64,000 nt of DNA. It comes from Anaerolineae bacterium. GTDB lineage: Bacteria; Chloroflexota; Anaerolineae; Epilineales; JAHCIE01. A model generated the notes under the pieces. That model was given only the letters and a program-made list of their open reading frames with translations. It did not search any database and was not told the origin of the DNA. Positions within the stretch are counted from its first letter, which is position 1, and every line of letters begins with the position of its first letter. Of the stretch, positions 42,703 to 64,000 are shown piece after piece. Location of the stretch: positions 9,559-73,558 of the forward strand of contig JAXLWL010000004.1 in the NCBI GenBank assembly GCA_046328505.1. Reading direction: 5' to 3'. A program made the position numbers and the translations under genes.

Positions 42703-42896
42703 CGGGCGCCTCCTTTGGACAATCTCACCGTCGCAATGACAGTGTAGTCCCACAGACGCCCCAAAAAGCGGACTAAGCTGTCCGAGAACTCGTACAGCGC
42801 GGCCGAAATCTAGGACCGGTAGAGGTGTATTTTGTATGTAGCTCGATGAGGAAGCGGGGACAGAACTGATCGTTTCGAACGGAGGGCCAGCCGCCG

Positions 42897-45186: not shown

Positions 45187-45297
45187 CTCTCTTCCCTAAC
45201 AGCTGCATGTTTCTTGACAGAGCGTAACCGTCTCCCACCCTCAGCGTTCTAATTAGTACACCTTGTGGACAGCAATGCGGCTGGAGGGAGAGAGGGA

Positions 45298-48900
<3,603 letters not shown>

Positions 48901-48982
48901 CAGACTCGATAAACACTTCATCGAATTTCGAAGTAGACAACAGCCAATCCCTATGCGGCTCCGAAGTCCAGGGAACTGTTCG

Positions 48983-49990
48983 CTAAACTCTCGAGCGTGT
49001 AGCGTACCATCTTTGCCACGCTTGAACGAGGGCTGGATTTGTGCAACGCGCAATAATATCTTGTGCCATTTCCGCCCAAGCCCGACGGCGTGCCGCCTCA
49101 GCACACAGTACCAGAAGCAGATTGTGGTACGCGGCCGGAAGGTGGGAATGCCTCGCTAACCCTTCGAGTTCCTGCTGGGTGAGAACTGGCTGTATCATGT
49201 GATCGATGCTCTGAGCCATGGTATCAAGTACTCTCTCGGACTCCCTCTTTGGAAGCATCAACGAGTCAGGATTTTGCTCAGCGTGAACTGAGAGATCGAC
49301 GGATATGGATGGCAGGTCATTTTGGTATAGATGCAAGCTATCACTGAGGTGATGATAGGAGCCGACCTCAATACCTAACCAGCCCGCGACAATCTCATGG
49401 AGCGAGGTAAACTGGACTACGTTGTGTGGCAAACCTCGGAAGATGTCGTTGCTCCTCATAACTTGCAGCCACTCAAGTTTGCCGTTCCTCACCTTAAGCA
49501 TTGACAAAATATTGCAAGGGATATCCGGGTTAACTGGTTCGCCATCAGGGTTGGGAAAGTCAATGGCCGGGTCCCATATCTGCAAAACAACTTGCCGAGT
49601 GCTCGAATTGTTCTGTAAGGCCAGGAATGCGCGTTCTAGTTGATCGACTCCGAAGTGACGCCGCAAACGAAAGCCGTATGCCCCATGGTAGATGTCGCTG
49701 TAACCCGCAAACTTGGGCAGTTGTCGGTTCCAGTAATTTAGGAATTTGGCATCATTGCGACCATTCAGGATCCAGATGACCTCCGCAATGGCAAACGCCG
49801 GGTTGAGCGGCGGGTGGCGTGACACAATCCAACGTTGTCGAGGGTCGCCGATGCAAAAGACAGCGTGCAGAAGTTCAACGGTAGATCCGCCACGACCCGC
49901 ATGCGCATGAGTGCTTTGAGCACCCATCAATTGCTCCATTACCTGTTGCCATACTTCGTCAGCCGTTTGACCTTCATAGACGTGAATCAT
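48983..49990 (-). CDS. thymidylate synthase (ThyA)-fold protein, divergent; candidate pyrimidine dNMP hydroxymethylase/methylase
   Basis: TS hallmarks: AFAIAEVIWILNGRND, YGFRLRRHFG, SSTRQVVLQIWDP, and catalytic-Cys context PDIPCNILSMLKVRNGKLEWLQVMRSNDIFRGLPHNVVQFTSLHEIVA. Not canonical ThyA. Start at MIHVYEG (49990) with GGAGAG upstream. Confidence 0.7.
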   Translation of the reverse strand: MIHVYEGQTADEVWQQVMEQLMGAQSTHAHAGRGGSTVELLHAVFCIGDPRQRWIVSRHPPLNPAFAIAEVIWILNGRNDAKFLNYWNRQLPKFAGYSDIYHGAYGFRLRRHFGVDQLERAFLALQNNSSTRQVVLQIWDPAIDFPNPDGEPVNPDIPCNILSMLKVRNGKLEWLQVMRSNDIFRGLPHNVVQFTSLHEIVAGWLGIEVGSYHHLSDSLHLYQNDLPSISVDLSVHAEQNPDSLMLPKRESERVLDTMAQSIDHMIQPVLTQQELEGLARHSHLPAAYHNLLLVLCAEAARRRAWAEMAQDIIARCTNPALVQAWQRWYATRSRV

Positions 49991-51716
49991 GAACTCTCCG
50001 TCTTGCTGACAGCAGGTCATTCAGCCCCCATTTTGGGGGATACCAATAGGTTAACGGTTGGGACCGCCAGCGATATACCTGTTTGATACGCTTTCTCTCG
50101 CTTCTACCCTTGATATCTGGATGTGCTAGTCTTGCGTACTTATCGACCTCACAGAACAGATTCTGACAATCTATCAACTGAAGGGGCCTACCGAACAGAG
50201 ATTGAAATGGGAGCTCGAGACGAGCAAATTCTTGTTGTTGCCGGTCAGTTACCAGGCGAATCACGTCAACCTCGTTCAGGCCTCCAAGATCGGTAAAACA
50301 CTTCCGAATTCCGTCACGTGCGCCTGGCCCAGGTACAACAAACTCCATCTCACTGAAATTAGTGATCGGGCTGTAGTTGATGTCGATGACGTATTGATAC
50401 GCAAGAAAGTCGCCCAACATCGGATACGAACGAAGGAGTTCAAAAGCATGCCTCATTGAACGTGCCTCGGTCAGGCGCCGTGGAACCCCATCTTCCATCA
50501 TTCTCTCAAGCAACTTTAGATAGCTTCGGTGTTTCACACTGAAACCAAAACTGCTTGCACCCGAAGGCATGATATACGCTGCTGAGAAAATAGGCTCGCC
50601 GGCTTCTCGGGCTTGAGCGAGCACTTGATCGTATTTCTCAAAGGAGTAGTCTCGATAGGCAATTCCACCCAAAGCGCTAAGGAGGAGTTCCCAGGTTTCA
50701 ATCCGGTTGAATATCTTAAAAAGAAGTATTCTGAAGAAGACTTCATCGGCCGTCGGATCACCCTCATAGATGACCCTTTGGACAAGGTATTGACTCACTC
50801 GATCGGAAGCCCGATAAGCATTAGTGAACTTATGTCTGGCGAGAATAGGGTCGTTTGTCCAAGGGGGCGGCTCATTAGCAAACCTCCGAAAGAAGATGGC
50901 TTGTCGTTCAGTGGCAAACCTCCAGTAGGTGTCGTAGACCTCCGTCGGCTTGGCCGGGGAGAGACTGGAGAAGATAGTTAGGCCAGCTGGTCGTGGACCA
51001 GTTTGCGCACCTGGTAGGTCTAAGCTCAATTGCCCCTTTACTTCAGACTGTAGGAAACCAGCGCGCCTTGATGCCTGTCTGCTCCTTCGAGATGTTCCGC
51101 TCTTCTGACGCACTTCCTCAATCGTTGCCACAACGGTTTTCAGGGCGTCATCGACCGCGCCGTCGTTGTCGACAACCCAAGTAGGGTATTTTACCCTTTC
51201 CCGTTCGGCAAGTACGTCGTAGTTCCCTCTAACCATCTTCCAGAAATCGATAGGGTCATCCTCTCTGAGGGGCGAGGACCGTCGGATCAGGAAAGCCGCT
51301 GTCGGTACGACTTTGCCCCAATACTTTATCTCCACATCAAGCATGGCCTCGAGTACTGACCGACTTACTCCACGGGCTATTCCATATACCCAAGTGGACC
51401 ACCAGAAACGATCAAGTACGATAGATTTCCCGTCGCGTAGTGATGGGAGAATTCGCTTCTCAATAGTGTCAACGTGGGCGGCGACATGCAGCATTTGCAG
51501 ACTGGTTGGACTGAGAGACTCAATCCCAAACCTCTCGGTCGCATGATGCAGTTCGTAGACATGAAGTCCTAAAGTTCCAGCCTCACGTCCTGGAAACGCC
51601 AAATAGTCGCATGCGCGTCCCGTTGAGTTCAGATGTTGTGTTAGCGCCTCAGCAAGAGTTGTCTTTCCAACTCCATCTGGCCCCTCGAAGACGTACAGCT
51701 CGCCCCAACCGATCAT
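49974..51716 (-). CDS. fusion protein: N-terminal thymidylate-kinase-like P-loop dNMP kinase domain (~200 aa) plus C-terminal ~370-aa domain of unassigned function
   Basis: N-terminus VFEGPDGVGKTTLAEAL...AFPGREAGT...VLDRFWWSTWVYG parallels Tmk (EGxDGxGKTT / REPGGT / DR...S..AYQ). The C-terminal domain (YDTYWRFATERQAIFFRRF...YRASDRVSQYL...) has no family I can name. Overlaps both neighbouring genes, so the set reads as an operon. Confidence 0.65.
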   Translation of the reverse strand: MIGWGELYVFEGPDGVGKTTLAEALTQHLNSTGRACDYLAFPGREAGTLGLHVYELHHATERFGIESLSPTSLQMLHVAAHVDTIEKRILPSLRDGKSIVLDRFWWSTWVYGIARGVSRSVLEAMLDVEIKYWGKVVPTAAFLIRRSSPLREDDPIDFWKMVRGNYDVLAERERVKYPTWVVDNDGAVDDALKTVVATIEEVRQKSGTSRRSRQASRRAGFLQSEVKGQLSLDLPGAQTGPRPAGLTIFSSLSPAKPTEVYDTYWRFATERQAIFFRRFANEPPPWTNDPILARHKFTNAYRASDRVSQYLVQRVIYEGDPTADEVFFRILLFKIFNRIETWELLLSALGGIAYRDYSFEKYDQVLAQAREAGEPIFSAAYIMPSGASSFGFSVKHRSYLKLLERMMEDGVPRRLTEARSMRHAFELLRSYPMLGDFLAYQYVIDINYSPITNFSEMEFVVPGPGARDGIRKCFTDLGGLNEVDVIRLVTDRQQQEFARLELPFQSLFGRPLQLIDCQNLFCEVDKYARLAHPDIKGRSERKRIKQVYRWRSQPLTYWYPPKWGLNDLLSARRRVHDSRL

Positions 51717-52513
51717 ATCAGACCCCCCAAGCCAATTTGGATGCCGCCCTGATCCAACTTGCTGGAGCAGATGTTAGCCTCAACTTCCTCCTTCAATCCA
51801 CTCAAGGTTCGCTTGCCCACACCTCCTAGTGTCGCGACCCCGGTGATGCAATGCATCTGTGTGAGCTCGAGGCCCAACTCATGGGCCACGAAGCGCCCCA
51901 GGTTGCAGAGGCCCAAGTAATTTCCATAAGCTCGTTCGAAGAGGTACTGAGTAGCGTACACCCCCATAATAGCAAGCTCTTCACTGTTGAGCGGAATGAA
52001 CATTACATGCTGCAGGCAGGGAAAGCCACGCCGACGTTGATTACTGTGATCGAGTACTGGGTCGAAGATCATGGCTTGCAGAGCGCTACGCCGATGATTA
52101 CCGCGCTGATAGGTGGTAATAATGTGGTCAAGCTGATTCATCTTACCGGAACCATAGGCTATCAGGCGCTCAAAATAGACACCGTAATGATTTCGGGAGT
52201 CCTCCTTAAGTTTAGGTAGGACGCGAAGGTAACGCTCAAACAAGACGGCTCGCTCGCCGCCTGGATTCCAAAGAGATTGAGGGAAGATCGTGTTGGCTAC
52301 GGTACGGCATGACTGCTTACTGTGGCAGCTAAGGTGACGGTCGAGTACTTGACGGACGCTATCCATTTCAATGGGTGTACTGTTCGATAGCCCAGTCACG
52401 TCTACCACTAATGGCGTAATCTCTTCTACGCCCCGATCCATCAACTCCAGGAATGCTTGGGACCAGGCGAGCGATATGTTATTGCTGGCAATATGAACTG
52501 GCCTACTCCTCAT
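51713..52513 (-). CDS. second thymidylate synthase-fold protein (266 aa, divergent)
   Basis: YGVYFERL, QRGNHRRSALQAMIFDP and RRRGFPCLQHVMFIPLNSEELAIMGVYATQYLFERAYGNYLGLCNL align with TS motifs (YGFQWRHF / DSRRxIVSAWN / PCHxxFQFYV...). Shares ATGA overlap with the kinase gene. Confidence 0.65.
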   Translation of the reverse strand: MRSRPVHIASNNISLAWSQAFLELMDRGVEEITPLVVDVTGLSNSTPIEMDSVRQVLDRHLSCHSKQSCRTVANTIFPQSLWNPGGERAVLFERYLRVLPKLKEDSRNHYGVYFERLIAYGSGKMNQLDHIITTYQRGNHRRSALQAMIFDPVLDHSNQRRRGFPCLQHVMFIPLNSEELAIMGVYATQYLFERAYGNYLGLCNLGRFVAHELGLELTQMHCITGVATLGGVGKRTLSGLKEEVEANICSSKLDQGGIQIGLGGLI

Positions 52514-53375
52514 AATCAGGGTCCTCCAAGTATCGATACATCGCGCGCCCTACATAGTTCCTTCGTGAGACTCGAACAAAGGCTGACCAACCTGTAGTAG
52601 GATGAGCAAGTCGCCCAAGACCAGGCTTGCGGCCTGAAAGGATTGTCCTTGCCTCATCAGCCTCCTCCACCCGAACGCACATTCCTTCTACGGTTACGCC
52701 GTCTGGCAAGACCACGAAGTCATTGACCTGCAAGTCAATGGGGCGACCTTGCCAGTGAAGATCGACCGGGATCACATGTCCATCGACGTCCTCGCCCAAG
52801 ATATCCGATTGGATTTCTTTCGGCGTTACCCGCTTCAGTTGGTCTGCATGTGATGCTGAGACAAGCTTCAGCATCACGTGCATATGGGTAATGAGTGTGG
52901 TGTAGCCAACACCGAACAGTTCGGCTACCCTATAAACTTCATCCGGGTTACATGATGGGATGGTCCAGCCGCGCTCGGTGAAAGCCCGACCGACAGCCGT
53001 CTTGGGCATGAGGAACAAACCCGCGAAACAGTCAGCCACAAATTCCTCGCTATCAGCTAAGCCTTGCTCATATGGTCTTTCCAAGGCCTGGTCCATGCGC
53101 ATGCCGTGGCCGAACACATGATGCCCAAGTTCATGAGCACACGTAAAGGACTGACGCCCACGCGGTCTGTGCGATGATACCGTGATCAAAGGACCCCGCT
53201 GCCGAACATACATGCCCTCGAGGCTTGGCATATCGGTAAAGCGCACTTCAATGCCGAGATTCTCCACAACGCTATAGATCGAAACCGGATTGTAGATTCC
53301 CAATCCTTGCGCTTGCCTGAGAGCAAGCGCCCGCTCGTTCGCCTCGAGAACCAAACGTTTTTGCGTTCCATTCAT
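52503..53375 (-). CDS. ImmA/IrrE-family (DUF955) Zn-metallopeptidase
   Basis: HEXXH in FTCAHELGHHVFGH. Immediately downstream of, and overlapping, the XRE gene. Confidence 0.8.
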   Translation of the reverse strand: MNGTQKRLVLEANERALALRQAQGLGIYNPVSIYSVVENLGIEVRFTDMPSLEGMYVRQRGPLITVSSHRPRGRQSFTCAHELGHHVFGHGMRMDQALERPYEQGLADSEEFVADCFAGLFLMPKTAVGRAFTERGWTIPSCNPDEVYRVAELFGVGYTTLITHMHVMLKLVSASHADQLKRVTPKEIQSDILGEDVDGHVIPVDLHWQGRPIDLQVNDFVVLPDGVTVEGMCVRVEEADEARTILSGRKPGLGRLAHPTTGWSAFVRVSRRNYVGRAMYRYLEDPDYEE

Positions 53376-53722
53376 CGAGCATCCCCTTCGGATCGCAGAG
53401 CAGCAAGCAATTGAAGTAGACGATCCAGGTCGTCCTTATCGAGCTTCGCCAGTTCACGAGCCGCAAGTTCTATCTTGTCCTGCGCCAAGCCAGTTTCATC
53501 CGCTCCTTCGCCTAGCAACCAGTCTACGGACACGCCGTAAATGCGCGCGAGTTCGACTAATTCTTCGGACGATACACGTCTCCTTCCTGCCTCCGCTTCT
53601 GAAATCGAAGGGCGATGTAGTCCAAGCATCTTGGCTACTTGCCCTTGCGAAAGGCCAGCCATTTCTCGTGCGAGACGAAGTCTTGAGGCAAATGGTTTTC
53701 GCTTCTCATCAGTCCGGCTCAT
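53372..53722 (-). CDS. XRE-family HTH transcriptional regulator
   Basis: Start refined to ATG (MSRTDEK...) with AAAGGAGGG upstream. HTH LRLAREMAGLSQGQVAKMLGLHRPSISEAEAGRRRVSSEELVELARIYGVSVDWLL. Confidence 0.8.
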   Translation of the reverse strand: MSRTDEKRKPFASRLRLAREMAGLSQGQVAKMLGLHRPSISEAEAGRRRVSSEELVELARIYGVSVDWLLGEGADETGLAQDKIELAARELAKLDKDDLDRLLQLLAALRSEGDAR

Positions 53723-54011
53723 TGCCTTGCCCTCCTTTGGGTTCGACAAGCTCGTAGAGTCGCGCTACGATGTCCCTCACCTTTGGCGATTCGCCATTGA
53801 CTGGGGCTAACATAACCTTCATTGGGACCTCACGCCGGAGGGACTCCGATAGCATTACAGAAACTTCCGTTGCATTCAAACTATCAAATCCCTCCAGGTC
53901 ACCTATTGGACGAGTAGCGTCACTGATCCTCGGAACTGCATATCCGCTCCAGCTCTGATTCTCCACGAGAGCTTCAATCAGTGTGTTTCTGATCTCATCA
54001 ATAGTCATTAG
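53709..54011 (-). CDS. small hypothetical protein (100 aa), first gene of the XRE/ImmA operon
   Basis: ATG at 54011 with GAGAGGG 8 nt upstream (MTIDEIRNTLIEALVENQSW...). Overlaps the XRE start. Confidence 0.45.
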   Translation of the reverse strand, partial: LMTIDEIRNTLIEALVENQSWSGYAVPRISDATRPIGDLEGFDSLNATEVSVMLSESLRREVPMKVMLAPVNGESPKVRDIVARLYELVEPKGGQGNEPD

Positions 54012-54038
54012 CAATCCCTCTCTTACCACTGGTAAGAA
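54011..54038. promoter_or_regulatory. operator-like triple half-site TCTTACC-N4-GGTAAGA-N3-TCTTACC at the 5' end of the XRE/ImmA operon
   Basis: Perfect 7-bp inverted repeats at 54011-54017, 54022-54028 and 54032-54038, immediately upstream of the first gene of the minus-strand operon. Confidence 0.45.
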
Positions 54039-54269
54039 AATCTTACCACAACTTCGGGCATTTGTCAAGTGGCAGAACAGTGAATCGGCGGCAAGTTTGA
54101 AATGTTGCTGACACAGGACCGTTTGACTCTTTCTACAGCAGGGTAGAGATACACCAGCTGCGACCATTGTGCTCGGGTCGGTTGTTGGTGGCAGAGCGCA
54201 TCAGTGACATCCTGGACAATATGATAGTCGGGACGTATCATATGGGCGGTAGATGGAGACTTAGAAGCC

Positions 54270-55010
54270 ATGAAACAGACCGTCATTTTCAATGACACGC
54301 GGATGCGCCTGGATGATGCTTTCCAGGTGCGGCACATTGCCACCTTTCCCGTCCAAACATGCAGTTCAAAGGACCAGGTTGACGCGGTACTGGCGGAGTT
54401 CGGGGACTTCGACCAGATACCGGTGGCCAATGGCGACGACGTTGTGGAAGTCATCGAGCGCGAAGGCGCTCGGAAGCGCCCCATCGCATTAACCGATGTT
54501 GTGTCGGCCTACGAGCCGCTGGCTAAGTTCCTCCCGATGCTGGAGCACTCGCCCTACCGCCTCGTCACGGAAGGTGGCAAGGTAACAGGTATCGTCACGC
54601 GCAGCGACACTTTGAAATTGCCGGTGCGCTTGCTCGCCTTCATGATGATCACTCATCTCGAAATGTTGATGGCGGACCTCATCCGAGCCAGATATCCCGA
54701 CAGCACAGGCTGGCGGCGCCGGCTCTCCGAGGAGAGACGAGCCAGAATCGACCAGAAAGAAGAGGAGCTACGCCAGCCAGGCAATAATCCAGAGCCGCTG
54801 GAGCTGACCGATTTTGCGGACAAGCGTGAAATCGTCCGTGTTGAGTACGACCTTCCTAACCGCTTCCAGAAGGACCTCGGCGACATCGAACGTGTGAGGA
54901 ATTCAGTGGCCCACGCCGGCAACTACGCTCAGACCGAGGACAGACTGAGGAAGTTCGTCAAGCGCATTCGGCTGGCGGACAAGTGGATCGAGGAACTGAG
55001 CCGGCTTTGA
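54270..55010 (+). CDS. hypothetical protein with N-terminal CBS-like region and C-terminal Rx4H (HEPN-like) motif
   Basis: KVTGIVTRSDTLKLP resembles a CBS pair element. C-terminal ERVRNSVAHAGNY fits the Rx4-6H HEPN motif. Assignment is weak. Confidence 0.4.
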   Translation: MKQTVIFNDTRMRLDDAFQVRHIATFPVQTCSSKDQVDAVLAEFGDFDQIPVANGDDVVEVIEREGARKRPIALTDVVSAYEPLAKFLPMLEHSPYRLVTEGGKVTGIVTRSDTLKLPVRLLAFMMITHLEMLMADLIRARYPDSTGWRRRLSEERRARIDQKEEELRQPGNNPEPLELTDFADKREIVRVEYDLPNRFQKDLGDIERVRNSVAHAGNYAQTEDRLRKFVKRIRLADKWIEELSRL

Positions 55011-55174
55011 CCTGAGTTGGTGTAAAAACTCTAACCGAGGCTGACTTGCCGACGATGTTGAGTATAATCAGGCCGTGGTGTGCCTGTACGCAGAAAGGCG
55101 CGTGCTGTGTGAACACGCGTGACCGTCTCGACGAGGGCACGCCTCCCCAACCTCCAATCCCTAGAAAGCTGCCC

Positions 55175-58171
55175 ATGTCCGCCTACCGCAAAAAGCTTAT
55201 TGAAGTCGCCCTCCCCCTCGATGCCATCAACAAGGAGTCGGCGCGCGAGAAGTCCATCCGGCACGGCCACCCCTCCACCCTGCACCTGTGGTGGGCGCGC
55301 CGCCCCCTCGCCGCCTGCCGCGCCGTCCTGTTCGCCTCCCTCGTGGACGACCCCTCGGCCCTGCCGGAGCAGTTCCCGACCGAGGAAGCGCAGGAAGCCG
55401 AGCGCCAGCGCCTGTTCCGCATTATCGAGGCGCTCGTCAAGTGGGAGAACTCCAATGACGAGGCGGTGCTAGACGCGGCCCGCCGCGAGATCGCCCGCTG
55501 CGTGGCCCGCGCCCACGACGTCGAGCTGGCGGCGAACGCGGTGCCGGCCCAGGTCGCCGAGGCTTTGCGGGAGTACGCTCCGCCGGTCCTCGACCCGTTC
55601 TGCGGCGGCGGCTCCATCCCCCTCGAAGCGCAGCGCCTCGGGTTGGAGGCCCACGCCAGCGACCTCAACCCGGTGGCCGTGCTCATCACCAAGGCCCTCA
55701 TCGAGATCCCGCCCAAGTTCGCGGGGCAGCCGCCGGTCAATCCTGAGGCGCGCAAGGACTTGTTTGCGTCGGGGAACGTGTCTACCGCAGAGGGCGCAGA
55801 GGGGCGCGGAGCAGAGGGACAGGACAATACAAAATCTCATCCTCTGCGTTCCTCTGCGTCCTCCGCGGTGAATCCTTCTTCGGCGGCGGCGAGTCCTCGC
55901 TGGACCGGGGCCAAAGGGCTGGCCGAGGATGTGCGCTACTACGGCAAGTGGATGCGTGACGAGGCCGAGCGGCGCATCGGCCACCTCTACCCGAAGGTGA
56001 AGCTGCCGCCGGAGCAGGGAGGCGGCGAGGCGACGGGCATTGCCTGGCTGTGGGCGCGCACCGTCAAGTGCCCCAACCCAGCCTGTAGCGCGCAGATGCC
56101 GCTGGTGCGCTCGTTCGCGCTCTCGACCAAGAAGGGCAAGGAGGCGTGGGTTGAGCCGATCGTGAACCGAGAGGCCAAGACGGTGCGCTTTGAAGTACGC
56201 AGTGGCAAGAGGCAGTCGCACGAAGGCACTGTAAACCGAAGAGGCGCAACCTGTATTGTCTGCGGTACCACCGTTCAGTTCGACCACATCCGTAGTGAGG
56301 GCAAGGCCCACTGTATGGGCGCACAACTCATGGCGATTGTGGCCGAAGGCCAGCGCGAGCGAGTGTACGTCGCCCCAAATGCGGAGCACGAAGCGGTAGC
56401 GGCCCAAACCGAGCCTGATTGGGCACCAGAGACGGACTTACCAGAGCAGGCGCTTGGCTTCCGCGTGCAACTCTACGGCATGACAAAGCACCGCGACCTC
56501 TTCACCCCGCGCCAGCTTGTTGCTCTCACGGCTATGAGCGACTTAGTGGGCAAGGTGCGAGAGCGCGTACAGCGGGACGCCTCTGCAGCGGGGCTGACAG
56601 ACGACGTAGTGGCCATAAGTACAGGACAAACGGGGGCACAAGCATACGCCGATGCAGTCGCAACATATCTCGCGTTTGCGTTAGACAAAGCAATAGATCG
56701 CAATACGTCTCTTTGTACCTGGGAACACGGTATGGACAGGATGAGAGGCACGTTCGGACGTCAAACGTTGTCCATGATATGGGATTTCGCGGAAACAAAT
56801 CCCTTTGCTGGGGCGGGTGGCGACCTCGGCGGAAGTGTAGAATCACTATCGGAGGTACTAGAGACGCTGGGTCGAAATTGGCCGGGTGAGACCATACAAC
56901 GGGATGCAGCCTCTGGCACGCATATCCGGGAAGTCATATACTCCACAGACCCACCCTACTACGACAACATAGGATACGCAGACCTTTCGGACTTTTTCTA
57001 CATCTGGCTCCGCCACTCTCTGGTGGGTGTTTATCCCGAGCTATTTACTACTTTGTTGGTTCCGAAGACACAAGAGCTGATTGCAGCTACCTACCGCTTC
57101 AACGGAAGTAAGGAGCGAGCACAACAATTCTTTGAAGAAGGACTCCGGAGCGTATTCACGCAGATGCGCAAAGCGCAATCTTACGAATATCCGGTCACCA
57201 TCTACTATGCATTCCGACAGGCTGAAAGCGAGGAAGACGAGGAGGCGGCTTCGGGAACAAGTGCGAATGGAGCCGAGCTTCGATCGTCCACAGGCTGGGA
57301 AACCATGTTGGAAGGATTGCGCAATGCTGCATTCGCAGTAACCGGCACATGGCCAGTGCGAACAGAGCAGGCAAAGCGTATGCGCGATCAGGAAGCTAAC
57401 GCTCTTGCCTCCTCCATTGTTCTCGTCTGCCGGCCGCGGCCGGAGAATGCGCCTCTCGCCACGCGCCGGGAGTTCCTGACGCAGCTTCGGCGCGAGCTGC
57501 CCACCGCCCTCAAGACCCTGCAGCGCGAGAACATCGCCCCGGTGGACCTGGCCCAGGCCGCCATCGGCCCCGGCATGGCCGTCTTCTCCCGCTACAGCAA
57601 GGTTGTCGAGGCCGATGGCTCGCCTATGCGCGTTCGCACCGCTCTGCAGCTCATCAACCAGACCCTCGACGAGGTCCTGGCCGAGCAGGAGAGCGAGTAC
57701 GACGCCGACACGCGCTGGGCGGTCGCCTGGTTCGACCAGTACGGCATGAACGAGGGGCCGTACGGCGTCGGCGAGACCCTGTCCAAGGCCAAGAACACCG
57801 CCGTCGCTGCCCTGGTCGAGGCGGGTATCCTCCAGGCGCGGGGCGGCAAGGTGCGCCTACTGGCGCGGGATGAGCTCTCCCCCGACTGGTCGCCGACGAC
57901 GGATACCCGCCTCACCGTCTGGGAGGTGACGCAGTACCTGATTCGCGCCCTCCAGAAAGGCGGCGAGGGCGCGGCGGCAGACCTGCAGGCGCAGGTGGGG
58001 AGCGTGGGCGAGGTAGCGCGCGACCTGGCGTACCGCCTGTACACGACGTGCGAGCGCAAGGGCTGGGCGCAGGAGGCGCTGGCGTACAACAGCCTCGTCG
58101 TCGCGTGGCCCGCCATTCAGGCCCAGGCAGCGAGCCGGCCCACAGCTCCCACGCAAGGTACCTTGCTCTAG
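55175..58171 (+). CDS. DUF1156-family N6-adenine/N4-cytosine DNA methyltransferase with internal Zn-ribbon (COG1743-like)
   Basis: N-terminus MSAYRKKLIEVALPLDAINKESAREKSIRHGHPSTLHLWWARRPLAACRAVLFASLVDDP is the DUF1156 hallmark. Zn-ribbon CPNPAC...CIVCG. Catalytic DPPYYDNIGYADLSDFFYIWL. Confidence 0.85.
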   Translation: MSAYRKKLIEVALPLDAINKESAREKSIRHGHPSTLHLWWARRPLAACRAVLFASLVDDPSALPEQFPTEEAQEAERQRLFRIIEALVKWENSNDEAVLDAARREIARCVARAHDVELAANAVPAQVAEALREYAPPVLDPFCGGGSIPLEAQRLGLEAHASDLNPVAVLITKALIEIPPKFAGQPPVNPEARKDLFASGNVSTAEGAEGRGAEGQDNTKSHPLRSSASSAVNPSSAAASPRWTGAKGLAEDVRYYGKWMRDEAERRIGHLYPKVKLPPEQGGGEATGIAWLWARTVKCPNPACSAQMPLVRSFALSTKKGKEAWVEPIVNREAKTVRFEVRSGKRQSHEGTVNRRGATCIVCGTTVQFDHIRSEGKAHCMGAQLMAIVAEGQRERVYVAPNAEHEAVAAQTEPDWAPETDLPEQALGFRVQLYGMTKHRDLFTPRQLVALTAMSDLVGKVRERVQRDASAAGLTDDVVAISTGQTGAQAYADAVATYLAFALDKAIDRNTSLCTWEHGMDRMRGTFGRQTLSMIWDFAETNPFAGAGGDLGGSVESLSEVLETLGRNWPGETIQRDAASGTHIREVIYSTDPPYYDNIGYADLSDFFYIWLRHSLVGVYPELFTTLLVPKTQELIAATYRFNGSKERAQQFFEEGLRSVFTQMRKAQSYEYPVTIYYAFRQAESEEDEEAASGTSANGAELRSSTGWETMLEGLRNAAFAVTGTWPVRTEQAKRMRDQEANALASSIVLVCRPRPENAPLATRREFLTQLRRELPTALKTLQRENIAPVDLAQAAIGPGMAVFSRYSKVVEADGSPMRVRTALQLINQTLDEVLAEQESEYDADTRWAVAWFDQYGMNEGPYGVGETLSKAKNTAVAALVEAGILQARGGKVRLLARDELSPDWSPTTDTRLTVWEVTQYLIRALQKGGEGAAADLQAQVGSVGEVARDLAYRLYTTCERKGWAQEALAYNSLVVAWPAIQAQAASRPTAPTQGTLL

Positions 58172-58210
58172 CCCGTTCCTCGCCGATGGATATCGTGAGT
58201 GTGCGGCGGG

Positions 58211-58405
58211 CTAGATGAAGCGGAGCAGGGCAAGGATGAGGAGCGCGATGAACAGGACCACCAGGCAACCCAGGGCGTTGTTGTTGGGCGGCTGCGCCCC
58301 CGGCACGACAACGACCACCGGCGGCTGCGGCCGCCTCATGCTGAAGATGCCCGCTATTAGCACGATTACGAACACGATCCCTAGCACGACGAGTGGGACT
58401 TCCAT
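58211..58405 (-). CDS. small two-TM membrane protein with central Pro-rich loop (paralogue of 42514..42702)
   Basis: ATG at 58405 with AAGGAGG 8 nt upstream. MEVPLVVLGIVFVIVLIAGIFSMRRPQPPVVVVVPGAQPPNNNALGCLVVLFIALLILALLRFI. Divergent from the STAND gene at 58607. Confidence 0.6.
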   Translation of the reverse strand: MEVPLVVLGIVFVIVLIAGIFSMRRPQPPVVVVVPGAQPPNNNALGCLVVLFIALLILALLRFI

Positions 58406-58510
58406 CGTCAGACCCTCCTTTGCTCGATTGGACACCCTCGGTCACGTTAAGCGTACAACCGACGCGCACTGGAGGATCAGACCGATGCGCTGAGATTTCT
58501 GCGTCGGCAG

Positions 58511-58528
58511 GCTATGAAAATTCATAGC
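58511..58528. promoter_or_regulatory. perfect palindrome GCTATGAA-AA-TTCATAGC nested inside a larger imperfect inverted repeat (GATTTCTGCGT...ACGCAGAATC) in the divergent promoter region of the small-TM/STAND gene pair
   Basis: 8-bp arms at 58511-58528, flanked by about 58494-58505 and 58531-58540. Lies between the two divergent start codons (58405 and 58607). Confidence 0.4.
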
Positions 58529-58606
58529 TAAACGCAGAATCCTCGGAGCGTCCTTGCAGTAGAGTGTGACATGGTGCGGATTCCTACATGCGACAGGGAG
58601 GGCAAC

Positions 58607-60970
58607 ATGTCTCGGTTCGGTGAATTACTGACGGGAGCCATCAACAGCATCGCGGCATATGAGCGCAAGACCGCCTTGAATATCGAAACAGAGCTGGGCG
58701 GGAAGATCGGCCTGACGGCAGCGAGCATCCAGCGCTACAAAGCCGGCCATGTTCCGCCGGACGCGCGCACCATTGAGGTGCTGGCTTCGGAGGCAGTCCG
58801 GCGGGCCTATCTCAATCAGCAATGGCTGGAGCGCTTCCTAAAAGCGGCGCGCTACCCGGCGCCACAACGGTTAGTCGAACAGCTTTTTCCAGTTAGCACT
58901 CAGCCATCTCGCGCGCTCCGGATTCCCCACAATCTGCCCGCGCCATCCTATCCGCAATTCATCATGCGCGAGCGAGAGTATCGGCGCGTCGTCGAAGGCC
59001 TGAAGCAGCGAACACCGACTGTCGTGATATCTGGAATGGGCGGCACAGGGAAGACGAGCCTGGCGCGAGAAGTGGCGGGACATTGCCTCGAGGCCAGAGA
59101 CAACTTCCCCAGCTTCGCCGCTGCTGTATGGGTGAGCGACAAAGGGCGTCCCGGGACGACGACGTTAAGCGGTGTGCTGGACGAGATCGCTCGGACCTTG
59201 GATCACTGGGATCTCACGCAGTTGGCGCACGAGGAGAAGAAATCCCAGATTGAGCAGGTGCTACGTTGGCAGCCCGTGTTGATAGTGATCGACAACTTCG
59301 AGACCATCACCGACGGCAGCCTACTCGGCTGGGTTATGAAGCTGCCGCCGCCCAGCAAGGCATTGATCACGACGCGCGAGAAGCGGGAAGAGTTCCTGGG
59401 TAGTTGGCTAGAGGACCTGGGCGGCATGAATGAGGCAGAGGCGCGGGAACTTGTTGCCCAGCGCCTGCGGCAGCTGCGCATGACGAACCTCGTCACCGAA
59501 CCTAGTCAGCTGGACCCGTTGATTGATGCGACCGGCGCTAACCCCCAGGCCATGCAGATGGCAACCGGCCAGCTCAAGTATCAGCGCTCGCTGCAGCAAG
59601 TCATCGATGACCTGCACGCGGCGCGCGGCCAGGTATTCGACGACATCTTCGCACGATCGTGGAGTCTCATCGACAAGCCGGCGCAGCACGTGCTCCTCGT
59701 CGCGACTTTCTTCCCGACAAGTACCGCGGCCGAAGCCCTGGCCAAAGCCGCCGATGTCTACGACTTTGGCCTCGAGCAAGCCATTGAACTCCTGACCGAC
59801 CTGGCTCTGCTTGACGTTGAGCAAACCGGATTGGACCAGCCGCCTCGCTACGGGCTGCATCCCTTGGTACGCGCGTTCGCAAGCGAGAGATTGCGAGAGG
59901 AGACGACATTCGAATTGGCCGCCCGTCAACGTTGGTGTCGGTACTATGTCGAGTTCGCCGAGCAGCACATTGTCCGCACGGTGCCCCGGACTCGCTACTG
60001 GAATAGCCTGCTAGGCCGAGATCTGACGCTGGCCAATCCCGAGAAATCGAACCTATGTAGCGCCCTAGAGTGGGCTGAAGTGCATCACTGCGACGAACTG
60101 CTTGTCGAGCTAATGATACGATGGGCGCACTACATGGGTCGCCGCAACTTCCGTGAGCGGATCCAGTTCTCAAAGAAAGCAGCCGATGCGGCAGCACGTT
60201 TGGGTCACCAGTGGGATGAAGCGGTGTTGCTGATAGACGCCTACGGTTGGGTTTGCATTGAAGCCGGGTTGTTCGAGGATGCGCACCATGCCATCTCCCG
60301 TGGCTTGGAGTTAGCCTACTGCATCGAGTCGGCTGACCTGATTGCCCTTGGCAATGCGTTTCTCGCCAGACTATGTATCGACACGGGTGGCGACCTGGAT
60401 AGGGCGGGCGCGCTCCTTGACACGGCGCGTCTTGTCGTCCCGAATATCGGTTCAGATCTGGAGGCGGTCATCCGCGTCCGAGTGGACTTGGCGAGCGGTG
60501 ACCTGGCCGCCAAGCGGGGAGACTATCTCAAAGCGATCCAGTGCTATGAAGACGCGCTCGCAGATGGCTGGCATTACGGCGGCGAAGAGCCCGTCGTCGA
60601 GGCGAAATTCAGGCTCGGGCAAGTCTTCCTTGTCGAAGGTGACGTCCAGCGGCGGTTGGGTGAAGCTGCCCTTGCGCAAGGTGAGGCTGCCCATGCTGGC
60701 GGAGAACTCGAACAAGCCGAAATAATGCTGAGGCGCGCCGAGGAGTGTTTTACCCAGATACTCGACGCGCGGCACCAATCGAGCCTGTTGGACCTCACGT
60801 TCGCGCAGTATGGCCTGGCCTGCGTCGCCGTCCGCCGGGGCGACTTCGCGCGGGCGCGCACCTTCGCGTCGGAGGCAGAGGGCACGCTCTCGCAATTGGG
60901 CGTAAGCCACGCCCTGCGCGGCAAGGTGCGCCAGCTACTGGACGATCTGGAACACATGCGCTCGCCTTGA
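58607..60970 (+). CDS. STAND NTPase: N-terminal HTH, NB-ARC ATPase, TPR repeats (intact paralogue of 42897..45186)
   Basis: GGGAGGG RBS. HTH MSRFGELLTGAINSIAAYERKTALNIETELGGKIGLTAASIQRYKAGHVPP. Walker A VVISGMGGTGKTSLAREV, Walker B VLIVIDNFE. C-terminal TPR-like repeats. Confidence 0.8.
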   Translation: MSRFGELLTGAINSIAAYERKTALNIETELGGKIGLTAASIQRYKAGHVPPDARTIEVLASEAVRRAYLNQQWLERFLKAARYPAPQRLVEQLFPVSTQPSRALRIPHNLPAPSYPQFIMREREYRRVVEGLKQRTPTVVISGMGGTGKTSLAREVAGHCLEARDNFPSFAAAVWVSDKGRPGTTTLSGVLDEIARTLDHWDLTQLAHEEKKSQIEQVLRWQPVLIVIDNFETITDGSLLGWVMKLPPPSKALITTREKREEFLGSWLEDLGGMNEAEARELVAQRLRQLRMTNLVTEPSQLDPLIDATGANPQAMQMATGQLKYQRSLQQVIDDLHAARGQVFDDIFARSWSLIDKPAQHVLLVATFFPTSTAAEALAKAADVYDFGLEQAIELLTDLALLDVEQTGLDQPPRYGLHPLVRAFASERLREETTFELAARQRWCRYYVEFAEQHIVRTVPRTRYWNSLLGRDLTLANPEKSNLCSALEWAEVHHCDELLVELMIRWAHYMGRRNFRERIQFSKKAADAAARLGHQWDEAVLLIDAYGWVCIEAGLFEDAHHAISRGLELAYCIESADLIALGNAFLARLCIDTGGDLDRAGALLDTARLVVPNIGSDLEAVIRVRVDLASGDLAAKRGDYLKAIQCYEDALADGWHYGGEEPVVEAKFRLGQVFLVEGDVQRRLGEAALAQGEAAHAGGELEQAEIMLRRAEECFTQILDARHQSSLLDLTFAQYGLACVAVRRGDFARARTFASEAEGTLSQLGVSHALRGKVRQLLDDLEHMRSP

Positions 60971-61036
60971 GCGCGTCAGATGTGGATGAGGGCCCTCTGT
61001 CGAAGGGATGAGAACGTCAATCGGAAAGGGAATTCA

Positions 61037-64000
61037 ATGGCGACGACGAACCACGAGCGCATCGGCAAAGTCATGGAGTTGCTGCGCGCCGGGCTGAAAC
61101 CGTATGTCACGCGCGAGCTCGAAGCGAAGCACGGCAAGTACTGGGTCACGACGGTGACACAGAAGTGGCCCCACGACCTAGACTGGAGCGACAGCGACGA
61201 GCCGAACCTGGATGCCGCCGTTCTCCTGCGCATGATGTGGGACGAGTGGAACGAGGTCTTCCGGAACACCCTGGGCTACGCCGAACGCAGCATCGTCAGC
61301 GAGCTGCGCGACACGCGCAACCGCTGGGCGCACCAGCGCGGCTTCTCCCTGGACGACACCTACCGCGCCCTGGACAGCGCCCAACGCCTCCTCCTCGCCG
61401 TGTCCGCCCCTGAGGCCGAGCAGATCGACCGTATGAAGCAGGAGGTTCTGCGGCTTCGCTACGAAGAGGAGACGAAGCGCGAGGCCAAGAAGGCCGCCGT
61501 CGCCGCCACCGAGGGTCAGCCGAGCGCCGGCCTGCGTCCCTGGCGCGAGATCGTCACACCCCACCCCGACGTCGCGGCCGGCCGCTACCAGCAGGCGGAG
61601 TTCGCCGCCGACCTGGCCCAGGTGCATCGCGGCGAGGGCACCGACGAGTACCGTGACCCGCGGGCCTTCTACCAGCGCACCTATCTGACGGAGGGCCTGC
61701 GCCGCCTGCTCAAGGACGCGCTGCTACGCCTCAGCGGGCAGGGCGGCGAGCCGGACATCGAGCTCCAAACCAACTTCGGCGGCGGCAAGACCCACTCGAT
61801 GCTCGCCCTCTACCACCTGTTCTCGGGCGTCTCGTCGAGCGAGTTGGCCGGCATCGAGGGCGTGATGCGCGAGACCGGCGTGGCGATGTTGCCGCAGGTG
61901 CAGCGCGCCGTCCTGGTCGGCACGGCCCTATCGCCCGGCCAGCCGCGGCGCAAGCCCGACGGCACGCTCGTCAACACACTGTGGGGCGAGCTCGCCTGGC
62001 AGCTCCTCGGCCGCGACGGCTACGACCTGGTCGCCGAAGCCGACCGCAACGGCACGAACCCCGGCGCCGCCCTCAACGAAGTGCTCAGCATCGCCCAGCC
62101 GTGCCTCATCCTCATTGACGAGTGGGTCGCCTACGTCCGCCAGCTATACACCAACCCCAACCTGCCGGCTGGCTCGTTCGAGGCGAACCTGACGTTCGCC
62201 CAGGCGCTCACCGAGGCGGCCCGCGCCGTGCCTCGCGCCATGGTCGTCGCCAGCATCCCGACGTCGGACATCGAGACCGGCGGCGAGGGCGGCAGGGTGG
62301 CCCTTGATCACTTGCGCAACGTCTTCGGCCGCATGGAGTCGCCCTGGCGGCCGGCCAGCGCCGAGGAGGGCTTCGAGATTGTGCGCCGCCGCTTGTTCGA
62401 GCCGGTCACCGATCCCAGCCTCTACGCCGCGCGCGACGCCGTCGTGGACAGCTTCATGAACATGTACCGCACGCAGAAGGCCGAGTTCACCCAGGACACG
62501 CGCTCGGCCGACTACGAGCGGCGCATGAAGGCGGCCTACCCCATCCACCCCGAGCTATTCGACCGGCTCTACAACGACTGGTCGACGCTGGAGAAGTTCC
62601 AGCGCACGCGCGGCGTGCTGCGCCTGATGGCCAAGGTCATCCACGCCCTGTGGGAGCGCGACGACCGCAACCTGCTCATCATGCCCGGCGTCGTGCCCAT
62701 TGACGCGCCTTCGGTGCAGGACGAGCTGACGCGCTACCTGGAAGACCCGTGGATGCCCATCATCGAGAAGGACGTGGACGGGCCGCACTCGCTGCCGCTG
62801 CGCCTCGACCGCGAGAACCCCAACCTGGCGCGCTATTCGGCCACCCGCCGCGTCGCCCGCACCCTCTACCTCGGCTCGGCGCCGACGCTGCACACGGCGC
62901 ACAAGGGCATTGACGACCGCAGCATCAAGCTCGGCGCGGTGCAGCCGGGCGAGTCGGCGGCGACATTCGGCGATGCCCTGCGCCGCCTGGCCGATCAGGC
63001 CACCCACCTCTACCAAGACGGGCAGCGCTACTGGTACTCGACGCAGCCGAGCGTCAACCGCCTAGCCCAGGATCGCGCCGCCCAGCAGACGGAGGACGCC
63101 GTCGAGACTGAGATCATCCGACGGCTGCGCCTGGAGCTGCGGCAGCGGGGCGACTTCGCCGCCGTGTACGCGGCGCTGCCGTCGGGCGACATCCCCGACG
63201 AGATGGAGACGCGGCTGGTCATCCTGGGTCCAGGCCAGTGGCACACCAAGGGCCAGGATAGCCCCGGCCGCAAAGCCGCCAAGGAGACGCTCGATCTGCG
63301 CGGCGGGATTCCCCGTCGCTACAAGAACACCCTCGTCTTCCTCGCCCCCGATAGCGCGCGCCTGGCCGACCTCCAACAGGCGGTGCGGCAGTACCTGGCG
63401 TGGAAGTCCATCGAGGCCGAGAGCGAGACTCTGAACCTCGACGCATTCCAGGCCAACCAGGCGAAGACGAAGAGCGCCGACGCCGACGAGGCTGTGAGGC
63501 GGCGCATCCCCGAAGCCTACGTCTGGCTGCTCGTCCCGACGCAGCCGGATGCGCATGGGCCACTGGAGTGGGAGGACATCCGTGTCCAGGGGACAGACAG
63601 CCTGGCCATGTGTGCCGCCAAGAAGCTCGTCAACCAGGACTTGCTCAAGACGCAGTGGGTGGGCACGCTGCTGCGCGTAGAGATGGACCGTATCCCCCTG
63701 TGGCGCGGTGACCACGTCGCGGTCCGCCAGCTCGCCGACGACTTCGCCCAGTACCTCTACCTGCCGCGCCTCACCGGACCGCGCGTTCTTCACGAGGCGA
63801 TCCAGGATGGCGTGCGCCGCATAACGTGGGAGCAGGAGACGTTCGCCTACGCCGACGCCTTCAACGCGACCACCAGCCGCTACACGGGGCTGGAAGTCGG
63901 CCACATTGTGAGCGTCAGCGCCAGCGCCGACGCCGTCGTCGTCAAGCCCGAGGTCGCCCGCCGCCAGATGGACGCCGACGCCAGCAAGGTCGTCACACCG
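61037..64000 (+). CDS. DUF499-family ATPase with N-terminal Swt1-like HEPN motif; 3' end beyond window
   Basis: Open frame from the ATG at 61037 to the window end, absent from the ORF track because no stop is reached. N-terminal ELRDTRNRWAHQRGF carries the Rx4H HEPN motif. P-loop TNFGGGKTHSMLALYHL, Walker B-like CLILIDEWVAY. Usual partner of DUF1156 methylases. Confidence 0.8.
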   Translation, partial: MATTNHERIGKVMELLRAGLKPYVTRELEAKHGKYWVTTVTQKWPHDLDWSDSDEPNLDAAVLLRMMWDEWNEVFRNTLGYAERSIVSELRDTRNRWAHQRGFSLDDTYRALDSAQRLLLAVSAPEAEQIDRMKQEVLRLRYEEETKREAKKAAVAATEGQPSAGLRPWREIVTPHPDVAAGRYQQAEFAADLAQVHRGEGTDEYRDPRAFYQRTYLTEGLRRLLKDALLRLSGQGGEPDIELQTNFGGGKTHSMLALYHLFSGVSSSELAGIEGVMRETGVAMLPQVQRAVLVGTALSPGQPRRKPDGTLVNTLWGELAWQLLGRDGYDLVAEADRNGTNPGAALNEVLSIAQPCLILIDEWVAYVRQLYTNPNLPAGSFEANLTFAQALTEAARAVPRAMVVASIPTSDIETGGEGGRVALDHLRNVFGRMESPWRPASAEEGFEIVRRRLFEPVTDPSLYAARDAVVDSFMNMYRTQKAEFTQDTRSADYERRMKAAYPIHPELFDRLYNDWSTLEKFQRTRGVLRLMAKVIHALWERDDRNLLIMPGVVPIDAPSVQDELTRYLEDPWMPIIEKDVDGPHSLPLRLDRENPNLARYSATRRVARTLYLGSAPTLHTAHKGIDDRSIKLGAVQPGESAATFGDALRRLADQATHLYQDGQRYWYSTQPSVNRLAQDRAAQQTEDAVETEIIRRLRLELRQRGDFAAVYAALPSGDIPDEMETRLVILGPGQWHTKGQDSPGRKAAKETLDLRGGIPRRYKNTLVFLAPDSARLADLQQAVRQYLAWKSIEAESETLNLDAFQANQAKTKSADADEAVRRRIPEAYVWLLVPTQPDAHGPLEWEDIRVQGTDSLAMCAAKKLVNQDLLKTQWVGTLLRVEMDRIPLWRGDHVAVRQLADDFAQYLYLPRLTGPRVLHEAIQDGVRRITWEQETFAYADAFNATTSRYTGLEVGHIVSVSASADAVVVKPEVARRQMDADASKVVTP

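Follow-up and report, generated by a model that had tools for sequence, protein, structure and literature searches.

The Hma system, as represented in PADLOC (Payne et al., 2021; PMC8565338), comprises three co-directional genes that encode an SNF2 helicase-nuclease (HmaA), a DUF1156 N6-methyltransferase (HmaB), and a HEPN-fused DUF499 ATPase (HmaC). It also bears the name Type-1 DUF499-centered BREX-related (BR) system (PMC12839542), and auxiliary effectors embedded in BREX and BR loci have been described (PMC12839542). Gene insertion into hmaABC has been published as a hotspot, with ~66.5% of systems affected (Liu et al., 2024; PMC11232893). We analyzed a 64,000-nucleotide stretch of an Anaerolineae bacterium contig (hereafter the window), which by sequence is predicted to carry a complete, restriction-modification-like Hma system with full-length PADLOC matches. 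Unlike the canonical arrangement, both of its internal junctions are filled, and the cargo between hmaB and hmaC includes an antisense gene that probably breaks the operon.

The Hma core genes

The three genes lie in the order A-B-C, all on the plus strand, within a co-directional locus of 18.7 kb; Pfam and PADLOC support the Hma identity of each, and the catalytic motifs are intact in all three. The first core gene, hmaA (45265–48900, plus strand), encodes an SNF2 helicase with a C-terminal NOV_C PD-(D/E)XK nuclease. Its product aligns with positions 1–1172 of the 1176 in the PADLOC HmaA model (1691 bits), matches the Pfam families SNF2-rel_dom, Helicase_C, and NOV_C, and bears GAGKT and DEAH motifs. 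Downstream, hmaB (55175–58171, plus strand) encodes a predicted N6-adenine-type DNA methyltransferase identified by Pfam (DUF1156, E 9e-33) and PADLOC (HmaB, 1208 bits). Its ATG at 55175 agrees with the start of NCBI protein P0121 (998 aa, 100% identical), and the protein, which is 60–66% identical to homologues across phyla, retains both motif I (FCGGG, aa 142) and motif IV (DPPY, aa 592). A promoter-like site upstream of hmaB (CTGACT-16-TATAAT, 55041–55068, plus strand) agrees with the consensus at 10/12 positions, a consensus match only.

The third core gene, hmaC, begins at 61037 on the plus strand and runs past the window's end at 64000, leaving approximately its last 100 residues outside. 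DUF499 proteins of this system are STAND/ORC-like ATPases that in the common variant bear an HEPN RNase domain at the N-terminus. The gene here encodes HEPN_Swt1 (E 3.9e-37) and DUF499 (E 1.5e-28) domains, scores 1012 bits against PADLOC HmaC, and contains a GGGKT motif. The original prediction that an Rx4H motif persists in the DUF499 protein's N-terminus was correct: RNRWAH occupies residues 94–99, and the motif is kept in 68/69 HmaC N-termini from other loci. That prediction further treated the DUF1156 and DUF499 genes as a pair; both do belong to Hma, but Hma is a three-gene system, and hmaA and a second insert had been missed.

Third-position GC content (GC3) is 0.91 in hmaA and 0.92 in hmaC. 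In contrast to Hma systems generally, HmaB here is compositionally mosaic and contains a low-complexity insertion of ~60 aa; GC3 along hmaB is 0.92 for aa 1–200 and 750–998, ~0.65–0.75 for aa 300–480, and 0.47–0.58 for aa 450–750.

Cargo at the two internal junctions

That both internal junctions carry cargo is a condition shared with a large share of Hma loci, and the nesting itself is ordinary. Among other loci, the hmaA-hmaB gap is ≤200 bp in 13/62 and ≥500 bp in 44/62, and the hmaB-hmaC gap is ≤200 bp in 36/68. The expectation that hmaB and hmaC are normally adjacent, and that related genomes would reveal the uninterrupted pair, thus holds for those 36 loci, but the two genes are split by at least 500 bp in 28 of the 68 (~40%), at what is a published hotspot (PMC11232893). 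Cargo elsewhere consists mainly of defense or toxin genes, including AAA_21/AAA_15 ATPases, DUF4276, PIN, GmrSD, TIR, Schlafen, and MNT-HEPN. This picture is in line with PMC11232893 and PMC12839542; PMC11232893 likewise reports foreign genes at the A-B and B-C junctions, at frequencies similar to those in our sample, and AAA_21 pairs, GmrSD, and Septu-like genes are common to both data sets. Neither of the two cargo blocks described below is reported as Hma cargo in the available parts of PMC11232893 and PMC12839542.

The hmaA-hmaB insert (48901–55174) spans 6.3 kb, has a GC content of 0.53, and is flanked by a 16-nt direct repeat (48938–48953 and 55148–55163). Matches to Pfam, PADLOC, and NCBIfam identify, all on the minus strand, a thymidylate-synthase-like gene (48983–50020), a dTMP-kinase + 5-hmdU-DNA-kinase fusion (49974–51716), and a second thymidylate-synthase-like gene (51713–52513). 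These are followed, on the same strand, by genes for a CapP-like M78 peptidase (52503–53375; PADLOC capP E 2.9e-19, Pfam Peptidase_M78) and a CapH-like HTH protein (53372–53749; PADLOC capH E 2.4e-14), which overlap by 4 nt as an adjacent XRE HTH/M78 metallopeptidase pair. A 152-aa open reading frame (53709–54167, minus strand) and a plus-strand gene for a CBS protein with a C-terminal Rx4H motif (54270–55010) complete the insert. Compared with hmaA (0.91), GC3 is lower in the insert: 0.73 in the CBS gene and 0.48–0.58 in the genes on the minus strand.

The hmaB-hmaC gap measures 2,865 bp from stop to start (58172–61036) and is occupied, as originally predicted, by a small membrane protein gene and an HTH-STAND gene; the former proved to be on the minus strand, divergent from the latter. 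The GC3 of this cassette (0.72) differs from that of hmaA and hmaC, which argues that it is a secondary insertion. Consistent with this, a STAND homologue or cassette occurs in 0/80 other Hma loci, none of which has the four-gene order seen here, and the closest Chloroflexota relatives (L001, L002, and L005) carry different cargo at the hmaB-hmaC junction. Together with the autonomy of the pair elsewhere and its conserved operator region, both detailed below, these findings support the proposal of an inserted module nested in a defense island. Around the insert we found no target-site duplication, terminal inverted repeat, or recombinase, and only short repeats at chance level.

The insertion bears on how hmaC is expressed. 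The STAND gene ends 66 nt before hmaC, and a scan of this spacer (60971–61036) showed no terminator-like or promoter-like site; hairpins in the spacer and at the junction of hmaB with the small gene fold no better than shuffled sequence. The idea that hmaC retains its own promoter found no backing in the consensus scan, which returned no promoter-like site near the gene. Because the small gene is oriented against the old operon, hmaC is probably read through from the STAND promoter or served by a promoter of its own that escaped detection.

A divergent STAND and membrane protein cassette

The STAND gene (58607–60970, plus strand) encodes a 787-aa HTH-NB-ARC-TPR NTPase with matches to NB-ARC (E 5e-10) and nSTAND1 (E 4.5e-8) and weak matches to TPR repeats. 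The longest open reading frame begins at 58571; translation probably begins at the ATG at 58607, which follows a Shine-Dalgarno sequence (GGGAGGG) and yields a protein 100% identical to NCBI protein P0001. The N-terminal 105 residues are modeled with a pLDDT of 92, and the top fold matches in the PDB are nearly all XRE/Cro-cI HTH proteins, at weak E-values of 0.5–3. A sequence-profile search of the PDB with this domain gave no match, and a Pfam domain search of the protein gave none to LuxR/GerE HTH families. Conserved columns among homologues fall within residues 1–455, and the C-terminal part is variable. Two relatives (L157 and L162) carry an N-terminal membrane helix instead of an HTH, which indicates that a membrane element can take the output position at the N-terminus.

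The divergent partner (58211–58405, minus strand), convergent with hmaB, starts with an ATG preceded by a Shine-Dalgarno sequence (AAGGAGG) and encodes a 64-aa protein with two hydrophobic segments by hydropathy. It belongs to a family of 62–66-aa proteins with the conserved core PQ(I/V)IYV...GxGC(L)P, for which Pfam, PADLOC, and NCBIfam contain no family. An HMM for the small protein matched at 36 locations, almost always in divergent orientation beside a STAND homologue; an exhaustive HMMER run with a profile of two sequences recovered only the query itself, whose shortness and hydrophobicity make it unsuited to so large a library. A 92-aa plus-strand open reading frame at 58215–58493 was rejected as the small gene since it has no hydrophobic segments, ribosome-binding site, or homologues.

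The two genes share a control region (58406–58606). Scanning it for promoters and terminators gave no site, yet it contains the palindrome GAAAATTC (58516–58523, within CTATGAAAATTCATAG), which fits GAAnnTTC, and sites of this type with one mismatch at about 58490 and 58535. An extended dyad at 58484–58552 has a fold z of -4.8 and was also recovered as an inverted repeat in a repeat search. GAAnnTTC is present in 20/23 unique homologous spacers, where random expectation is ~1, and in these 20 it is mostly found ~105–112 nt from the small-gene ATG. Spacers often contain two or three such sites, 22–23 bp apart, which we regard as candidate binding sites. No GAAnnTTC occurs upstream of hmaA, hmaB, or hmaC, leaving the cassette's own as the only site in the Hma region.

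Comparison of homologues indicates that the divergent STAND/small-protein pair is a conserved, autonomous cassette, found as a self-contained unit in dozens of unrelated contexts. It represents a large, paralogue-rich Chloroflexota family combining a STAND protein (predicted XRE HTH, NB-ARC, variable TPR) with a two-helix protein, and the two-gene cassette appears to be undescribed so far. Many copies sit among housekeeping genes, for example those for transketolase, FolD, and an ECF sigma factor; some adjoin BREX genes and transposases. A 62–66-aa two-helix divergent partner accompanies only 24 of the 56 unique STAND homologues (43%), so the STAND protein may act on additional targets.

The same window contains another copy of the cassette, directly upstream of hmaA (42514–45186; GC3 0.70). 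It consists of a 62-aa small membrane protein gene (42514–42702, minus strand; Shine-Dalgarno AAGGAGG) and a STAND gene (42897–45186, plus strand) with a +1 frame break near 43056–43066; its spacer has no GAAnnTTC, and this copy is probably decaying. The two STAND proteins of the window are 31% identical. The window as a whole is a conflict island that also encodes two NACHT-FGE proteins and a caspase.

Candidate mechanisms and significance

Our preferred interpretation, which we hold with moderate confidence, is that the locus is an Hma system carrying a secondarily inserted autonomous cassette, and that the STAND protein is probably a transcription factor controlling the membrane peptide. 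A cue sensed by the TPR region would cause the STAND protein to oligomerize, and its HTH heads would bind the two or three phased palindromes in the shared spacer. Binding would presumably switch on, rather than repress, the small membrane protein, the predicted output and probably a membrane-perturbing effector, should it prove toxic as we suspect. The same HTH binding would autoregulate the STAND gene, and hmaC would be transcribed by one of the two routes given above. Judged by context alone, the cassette may have a role in defense.

Several described systems resemble parts of this arrangement. As in Avs (AVAST) and bNACHT proteins, the architecture is tripartite: an output module at the N-terminus precedes a STAND NTPase, which is followed by a variable repeat sensor. 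As in those families, paralogues are many, and at the present locus the context is a defense island. The STAND protein shares with Avs a STAND core and a C-terminal TPR sensor, but it has neither an N-terminal enzymatic effector nor a match to any Avs profile: PADLOC contains no Avs model that fits it and gave no significant match at all, the best having E-values of at least 0.001. The output module is instead an XRE-like HTH, and the presumed effector is encoded by a gene of its own, whose transcription would be controlled. MalT/LAL activators likewise combine a STAND NTPase, a repeat sensor, and an HTH, and the phasing of several candidate sites would, if these are bound, suggest oligomer-dependent binding. 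In those activators, however, the HTH is C-terminal and LuxR-type, whereas here it is N-terminal and XRE-type; further, the core is NB-ARC-like and the apparent target is not a metabolic operon but a membrane protein of 62–66 aa. Small membrane toxins under repressor control, such as TisB with its repressor LexA, and abortive-infection membrane effectors offer a parallel in that a tiny hydrophobic protein is presumably gated by a DNA-binding protein, but they have no sequence relationship to the present family, which is set apart by its two helices and its conserved core and whose toxicity is presumed. We also considered the NLR-associated amyloid pairs (Bell/BASS; bioRxiv 10.1101/2020.01.06.895854) in which the end of the neighboring effector and the NLR N-terminus have a short motif in common. 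We rejected them, since alignments on inspection revealed no such motif in the small protein and its STAND partner, whose N-terminus is modeled as a folded HTH.

A more ambitious version, which we offer as a tentative possibility, is that the cassette constitutes an undescribed NLR-like immune system: a phage cue would cause the STAND protein to oligomerize on phased GAAnnTTC operators, a membrane-disrupting suicide peptide would be produced, and read-through would couple the HEPN-DUF499 arm to the sensor, linking two layers of defense. It is unlikely, in our view, that the cassette is instead an ordinary signal-responsive regulator of a small membrane protein, for instance in envelope or developmental signaling, that landed by chance in a permissive intergenic site and has no part in immunity. 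MalT-type STAND transcription factors are metabolic regulators, the copies beside transketolase, FolD, and ECF sigma factor genes would suit such a role, the small protein has no database family, and the STAND protein matches no defense model. Yet a wealth of paralogues that join a variable TPR region to a conserved N-terminal half is typical of diversifying receptors, and this reading has to contend as well with the mostly defense and toxin cargo of other Hma junctions, the conflict-island character of the window, and the copies that adjoin BREX genes and transposases.

Other observations bear on whether the cassette has been drawn into Hma function. Its two STAND genes lie on the same strand as, and directly upstream of, hma genes (66 nt before hmaC and 78 nt before hmaA), with no intervening terminator-like site; in one locus (L162), hmaB is preceded at a distance of 4 nt by a TM-NB-ARC-TPR relative; and STAND cassettes precede brxA-brxB in two others (L100 and L101). 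These placements hint at a functional link that our preferred nesting interpretation does not predict. They would fit co-option of the cassette as an Hma sensor or regulator, the second of the alternatives originally proposed, with hmaC expressed only under STAND control and hmaA likewise under the upstream copy, as would the antisense small gene, which blocks simple read-through from hmaB to hmaC. We nevertheless regard co-option as doubtful and quite improbable: the cassette is missing from all other Hma loci sampled, comes with a conserved divergent target of its own, and is also present at a distance from any Hma or BREX genes, no GAAnnTTC other than its own exists in the Hma region, and the upstream copy appears frameshifted and has no operator. 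That the order hmaB, small membrane gene, STAND gene, hmaC is a conserved ancestral variant is extremely improbable, as the one point in its favor, the intact state of all genes, is set against the absence of this order from the other 80 loci, the different cargo of the closest relatives, and the compositional discontinuity at the insert.

Returning to secondary insertion, the nesting is one more example of a published hotspot, and its value lies in the cargo. Since genes at Hma junctions are mostly defense genes, these junctions can serve as a lens for discovery, and here the lens indicates a cassette widespread in Chloroflexota whose NLR-like sensor apparently acts through transcription of a tiny membrane protein, not through a fused enzyme. 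With its antisense gene and read-through geometry, the locus is furthermore a natural setting in which to ask how defense operons accommodate inserted modules or turn them to use. If confirmed, the mechanism would widen the range of outputs known for STAND immune receptors in bacteria and provide a compact, testable sensor-operator-effector unit.

The Hma genes and their split junctions

Three large plus-strand genes lie in the final 19 kb of the window: hmaA (45265-48900), encoding an SNF2 helicase fused at its C-terminus to a NOV_C nuclease; hmaB (55175-58171), encoding a DUF1156 methyltransferase; and hmaC (61037 to the window end), encoding a HEPN_Swt1-DUF499 ATPase. Their products match PADLOC HmaA, HmaB and HmaC over essentially their full length (1691, 1208 and 1012 bits), and therefore the DUF1156 and DUF499 genes originally read as a pair, both of which are present, constitute two-thirds of the three-gene Hma system. 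Catalytic signatures are intact in HmaA (GAGKT, DEAH), HmaB (FCGGG, DPPY) and HmaC (GGGKT, RNRWAH), the last of these being the Rx4H motif already recognized in the N-terminus of the DUF499 protein. The start of hmaB, 55175, is borne out by a 100%-identical NCBI protein. The composition of this gene is mosaic, with GC3 of ~0.92 at codons for aa 1-200, 240-330 and 750-998, ~0.65-0.75 at aa 300-480, and 0.47-0.58 at aa 450-750, the stretch that includes DPPY. This pattern suggests that central hmaB was replaced through recombination, possibly altering the specificity of HmaB. The protein also bears a low-complexity insertion of ~60 aa (aa ~190-250 of 998) that is missing from homologues.

The name Hma comes from Payne et al. 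(2021), who recorded 1,638 instances across 26 phyla, often close to Septu (PMC8565338), and a 2026 survey renames it the Type-1 DUF499-centred BREX-related system (PMC12839542). According to Liu et al. (2024), HmaA alone defends against T4, ~66.5% of hma systems contain gene insertions, and the region is a defence-gene insertion hotspot (PMC11232893). We mapped the three proteins by tblastn in 80 Hma loci from one-genome-per-species contigs. The original prediction held hmaB and hmaC to be normally adjacent; the uninterrupted pair does occur (a gap of ≤200 bp in 36 of 68 loci with that gene order), but 28 have gaps of at least 500 bp, the largest 8.7 kb. At the hmaA-hmaB junction, 13 of 62 loci with that order have gaps of ≤200 bp and 44 of at least 500 bp, reaching 9.5 kb. 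The cargo of these junctions (189 ORFs, 122 singletons) is mostly co-directional and highly diverse, and Pfam scans assign it chiefly to defence or toxin families, including AAA_21/AAA_15 ATPases with DUF4276, PIN, GmrSD, RloB, TIR, Schlafen, MNT-HEPN and ABC-3C; integrases and one transposase are present too. Our independent sample thus reproduces the published hotspot; that foreign genes interrupt Hma is already known, not new.

The hmaA-hmaB insert in the window (48901-55174; 6.3 kb) has a low GC of 0.53, with GC3 of 0.48-0.58 for its minus-strand genes. It encodes two thymidylate-synthase-like proteins, a CapH/CapP regulator pair, and a fusion of dTMP kinase and 5-hmdU-DNA kinase (HMUDK_hel, E 5e-113), and resembles a regulated module dealing with pyrimidines or DNA modification. 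Phages have homologues of the kinase's helical domain, and at the same junction of another Hma locus (L060) a homologous kinase and an HTH gene accompany Nmad2, MazG_C and TIR genes. Bracketing the entire low-GC insert is a 16-nt direct repeat, CAACAGCCAATCCCTA at 48938-48953 and CAACCTCCAATCCCTA at 55148-55163 (14/16 identical), located 38 nt past the hmaA stop and 12 nt ahead of the hmaB start; it may be junction sequence duplicated at insertion, and its length alone is compatible with chance. The CBS-domain protein encoded directly upstream of hmaB (54270-55010) carries at its C-terminus a conserved RNx(V/I)AH motif (Rx4H, HEPN-like). A homologue with 40% identity occupies the same place before hmaB in a Chloroflexia genome (L005, 7077-7874).

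A divergent cassette with a conserved control region

Between hmaB and hmaC we located both predicted genes, a small membrane protein gene and an HTH-NB-ARC-TPR (STAND) gene. The former (58211-58405, minus strand; 64 aa, ATG start, AAGGAGG upstream) encodes two strongly hydrophobic segments, and is convergent with hmaB (39 nt stop to stop) and divergent from the STAND gene. Translation of the latter most likely begins at 58607 on the plus strand, behind the Shine-Dalgarno sequence GGGAGGG and in agreement with the 787-aa NCBI call, to which the protein is 100% identical. In this product, an NB-ARC core is accompanied by weak TPR matches. Residues 1-105 gave a confident structure model (pLDDT 92), whose top fold matches among solved structures are nearly all XRE/Cro-cI HTH proteins, including Stl, C.Esp1396I, P22 c2, DdrO and ClgR, at E-values of only 0.5-3.

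The STAND family is very large in Chloroflexota, with 578 matches among scored candidates, the closest besides self at 47% identity; its N-terminal half is conserved and its C-terminal half variable. The same divergent gene, of 62 aa, was seen in the contexts of two STAND homologues. Searching all stop-to-stop segments with a small-protein HMM, with 79 metagenome loci fetched, yielded 36 matches, nearly all divergent from and adjoining a STAND N-terminus. After removal of duplicates, 56 STAND copies had upstream sequence long enough to judge, and 24 of them have the small partner, whose conserved core is roughly TM1-RPxPPQ(I/V)IYV-x-E-x-GGxGC(L)P-TM2.

The spacer separating the two genes is also conserved, usually at 190-225 bp. 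A GAAnnTTC palindrome is found in 20 of 23 unique spacers (~1 in Markov-shuffled controls), in most of the 20 at ~105-112 nt from the small-gene ATG and often with additional sites 22-23 bp to either side, and 12 of the 23 have a GTAGTnnAC box ~37 nt from that ATG. In the window, the central palindrome GAAAATTC (58516-58523) is flanked by one-mismatch sites at ~58490 and ~58535, all three within an extended dyad (fold z = -4.8). Tandem repeats (AGGAGTC/AGGAGCC and TTGTTCC units) enlarge the spacer to 520-556 bp at two loci (L087, L093), where a GAAACTTC site close to the STAND gene is retained. What seems new here is the cassette itself.

Probable insertion of the cassette and its relation to Hma

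The reading of the hmaB-hmaC cassette as an autonomous, secondarily inserted module, as originally proposed, is best supported. The alternative, that the four-gene order is ancestral, finds no counterpart in related genomes: the cassette appears in none of the 80 other Hma loci, and those from the nearest Chloroflexota carry different cargo at hmaB-hmaC; the small-protein HMM has no match in the 80 either. Insertion is further supported because the cassette elsewhere stands alone amid housekeeping genes or near transposases, carries its own control region, and differs in GC3 (0.72 for the STAND gene and 0.70 for a second copy, versus 0.91 for hmaA and 0.92 for hmaC). A search for an insertion scar at the hmaB-hmaC cassette found none; recombination between conserved flanking genes could have brought it in.

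The second cassette lies directly upstream of hmaA, with its small gene at 42514-42702 (minus strand) and its STAND gene, 31% identical to the first, at 42897-45186. The latter has an apparent +1 frame break in a C-rich run near 43056-43066, which places the HTH part (from ATG 42897) out of frame with the NB-ARC-TPR part (ORF from 42991), and its spacer lacks the GAAnnTTC palindrome. Either this copy is decaying or the break is an indel from assembly.

The cassette may be functionally linked to Hma. Each copy lies just ahead of an hma gene on the same strand (66 nt from hmaC, 78 nt from hmaA), and no terminator-like site was found in the STAND-hmaC interval. Read-through from hmaB into hmaC is unlikely, since the small gene is antisense. 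On a metagenome contig (L162), a related NB-ARC-TPR gene stops 4 nt short of an hmaB start; this gene comes after an Mrr_cat nuclease gene, and the hmaB frame degenerates after ~50 codons. Cassettes also lie ~0.5 kb ahead of BREX brxA-brxB, and point the same way, at L100 (5001-9231) and L101 (1403-6359), which are related yet distinct metagenome contigs. Two points speak against a dedicated link: the one occurrence of the operator motif in the Hma region is in the cassette's own spacer, and the association of cassette with Hma is rare.

Predicted output and defence context

From its layout, the STAND protein would be a receptor that acts through a DNA-binding output module. The phased palindromes between the divergent genes would fit oligomer-dependent binding, through which upstream sites could activate the small gene while overlapping the regulator's own promoter. 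STAND relatives of ~31% identity at L157 (894-2960) and L162 (1110-3582) have an N-terminal membrane helix in place of the HTH, before a conserved NLPP-x4-F(I/V)GRE linker, which suggests membrane action as the output of the family. Ahead of the cassette and Hma come two tandem NACHT/FGE-sulfatase proteins (35007-38063 and 38257-41439), followed by a caspase-like peptidase C14 (41454-42494). The conflict island therefore covers no less than the stretch between 35 kb and the end of the window. Judging from context only, the cassette may have a defence role: it occupies a cargo bay within this island, its paralogues are numerous and its sensor region varies.
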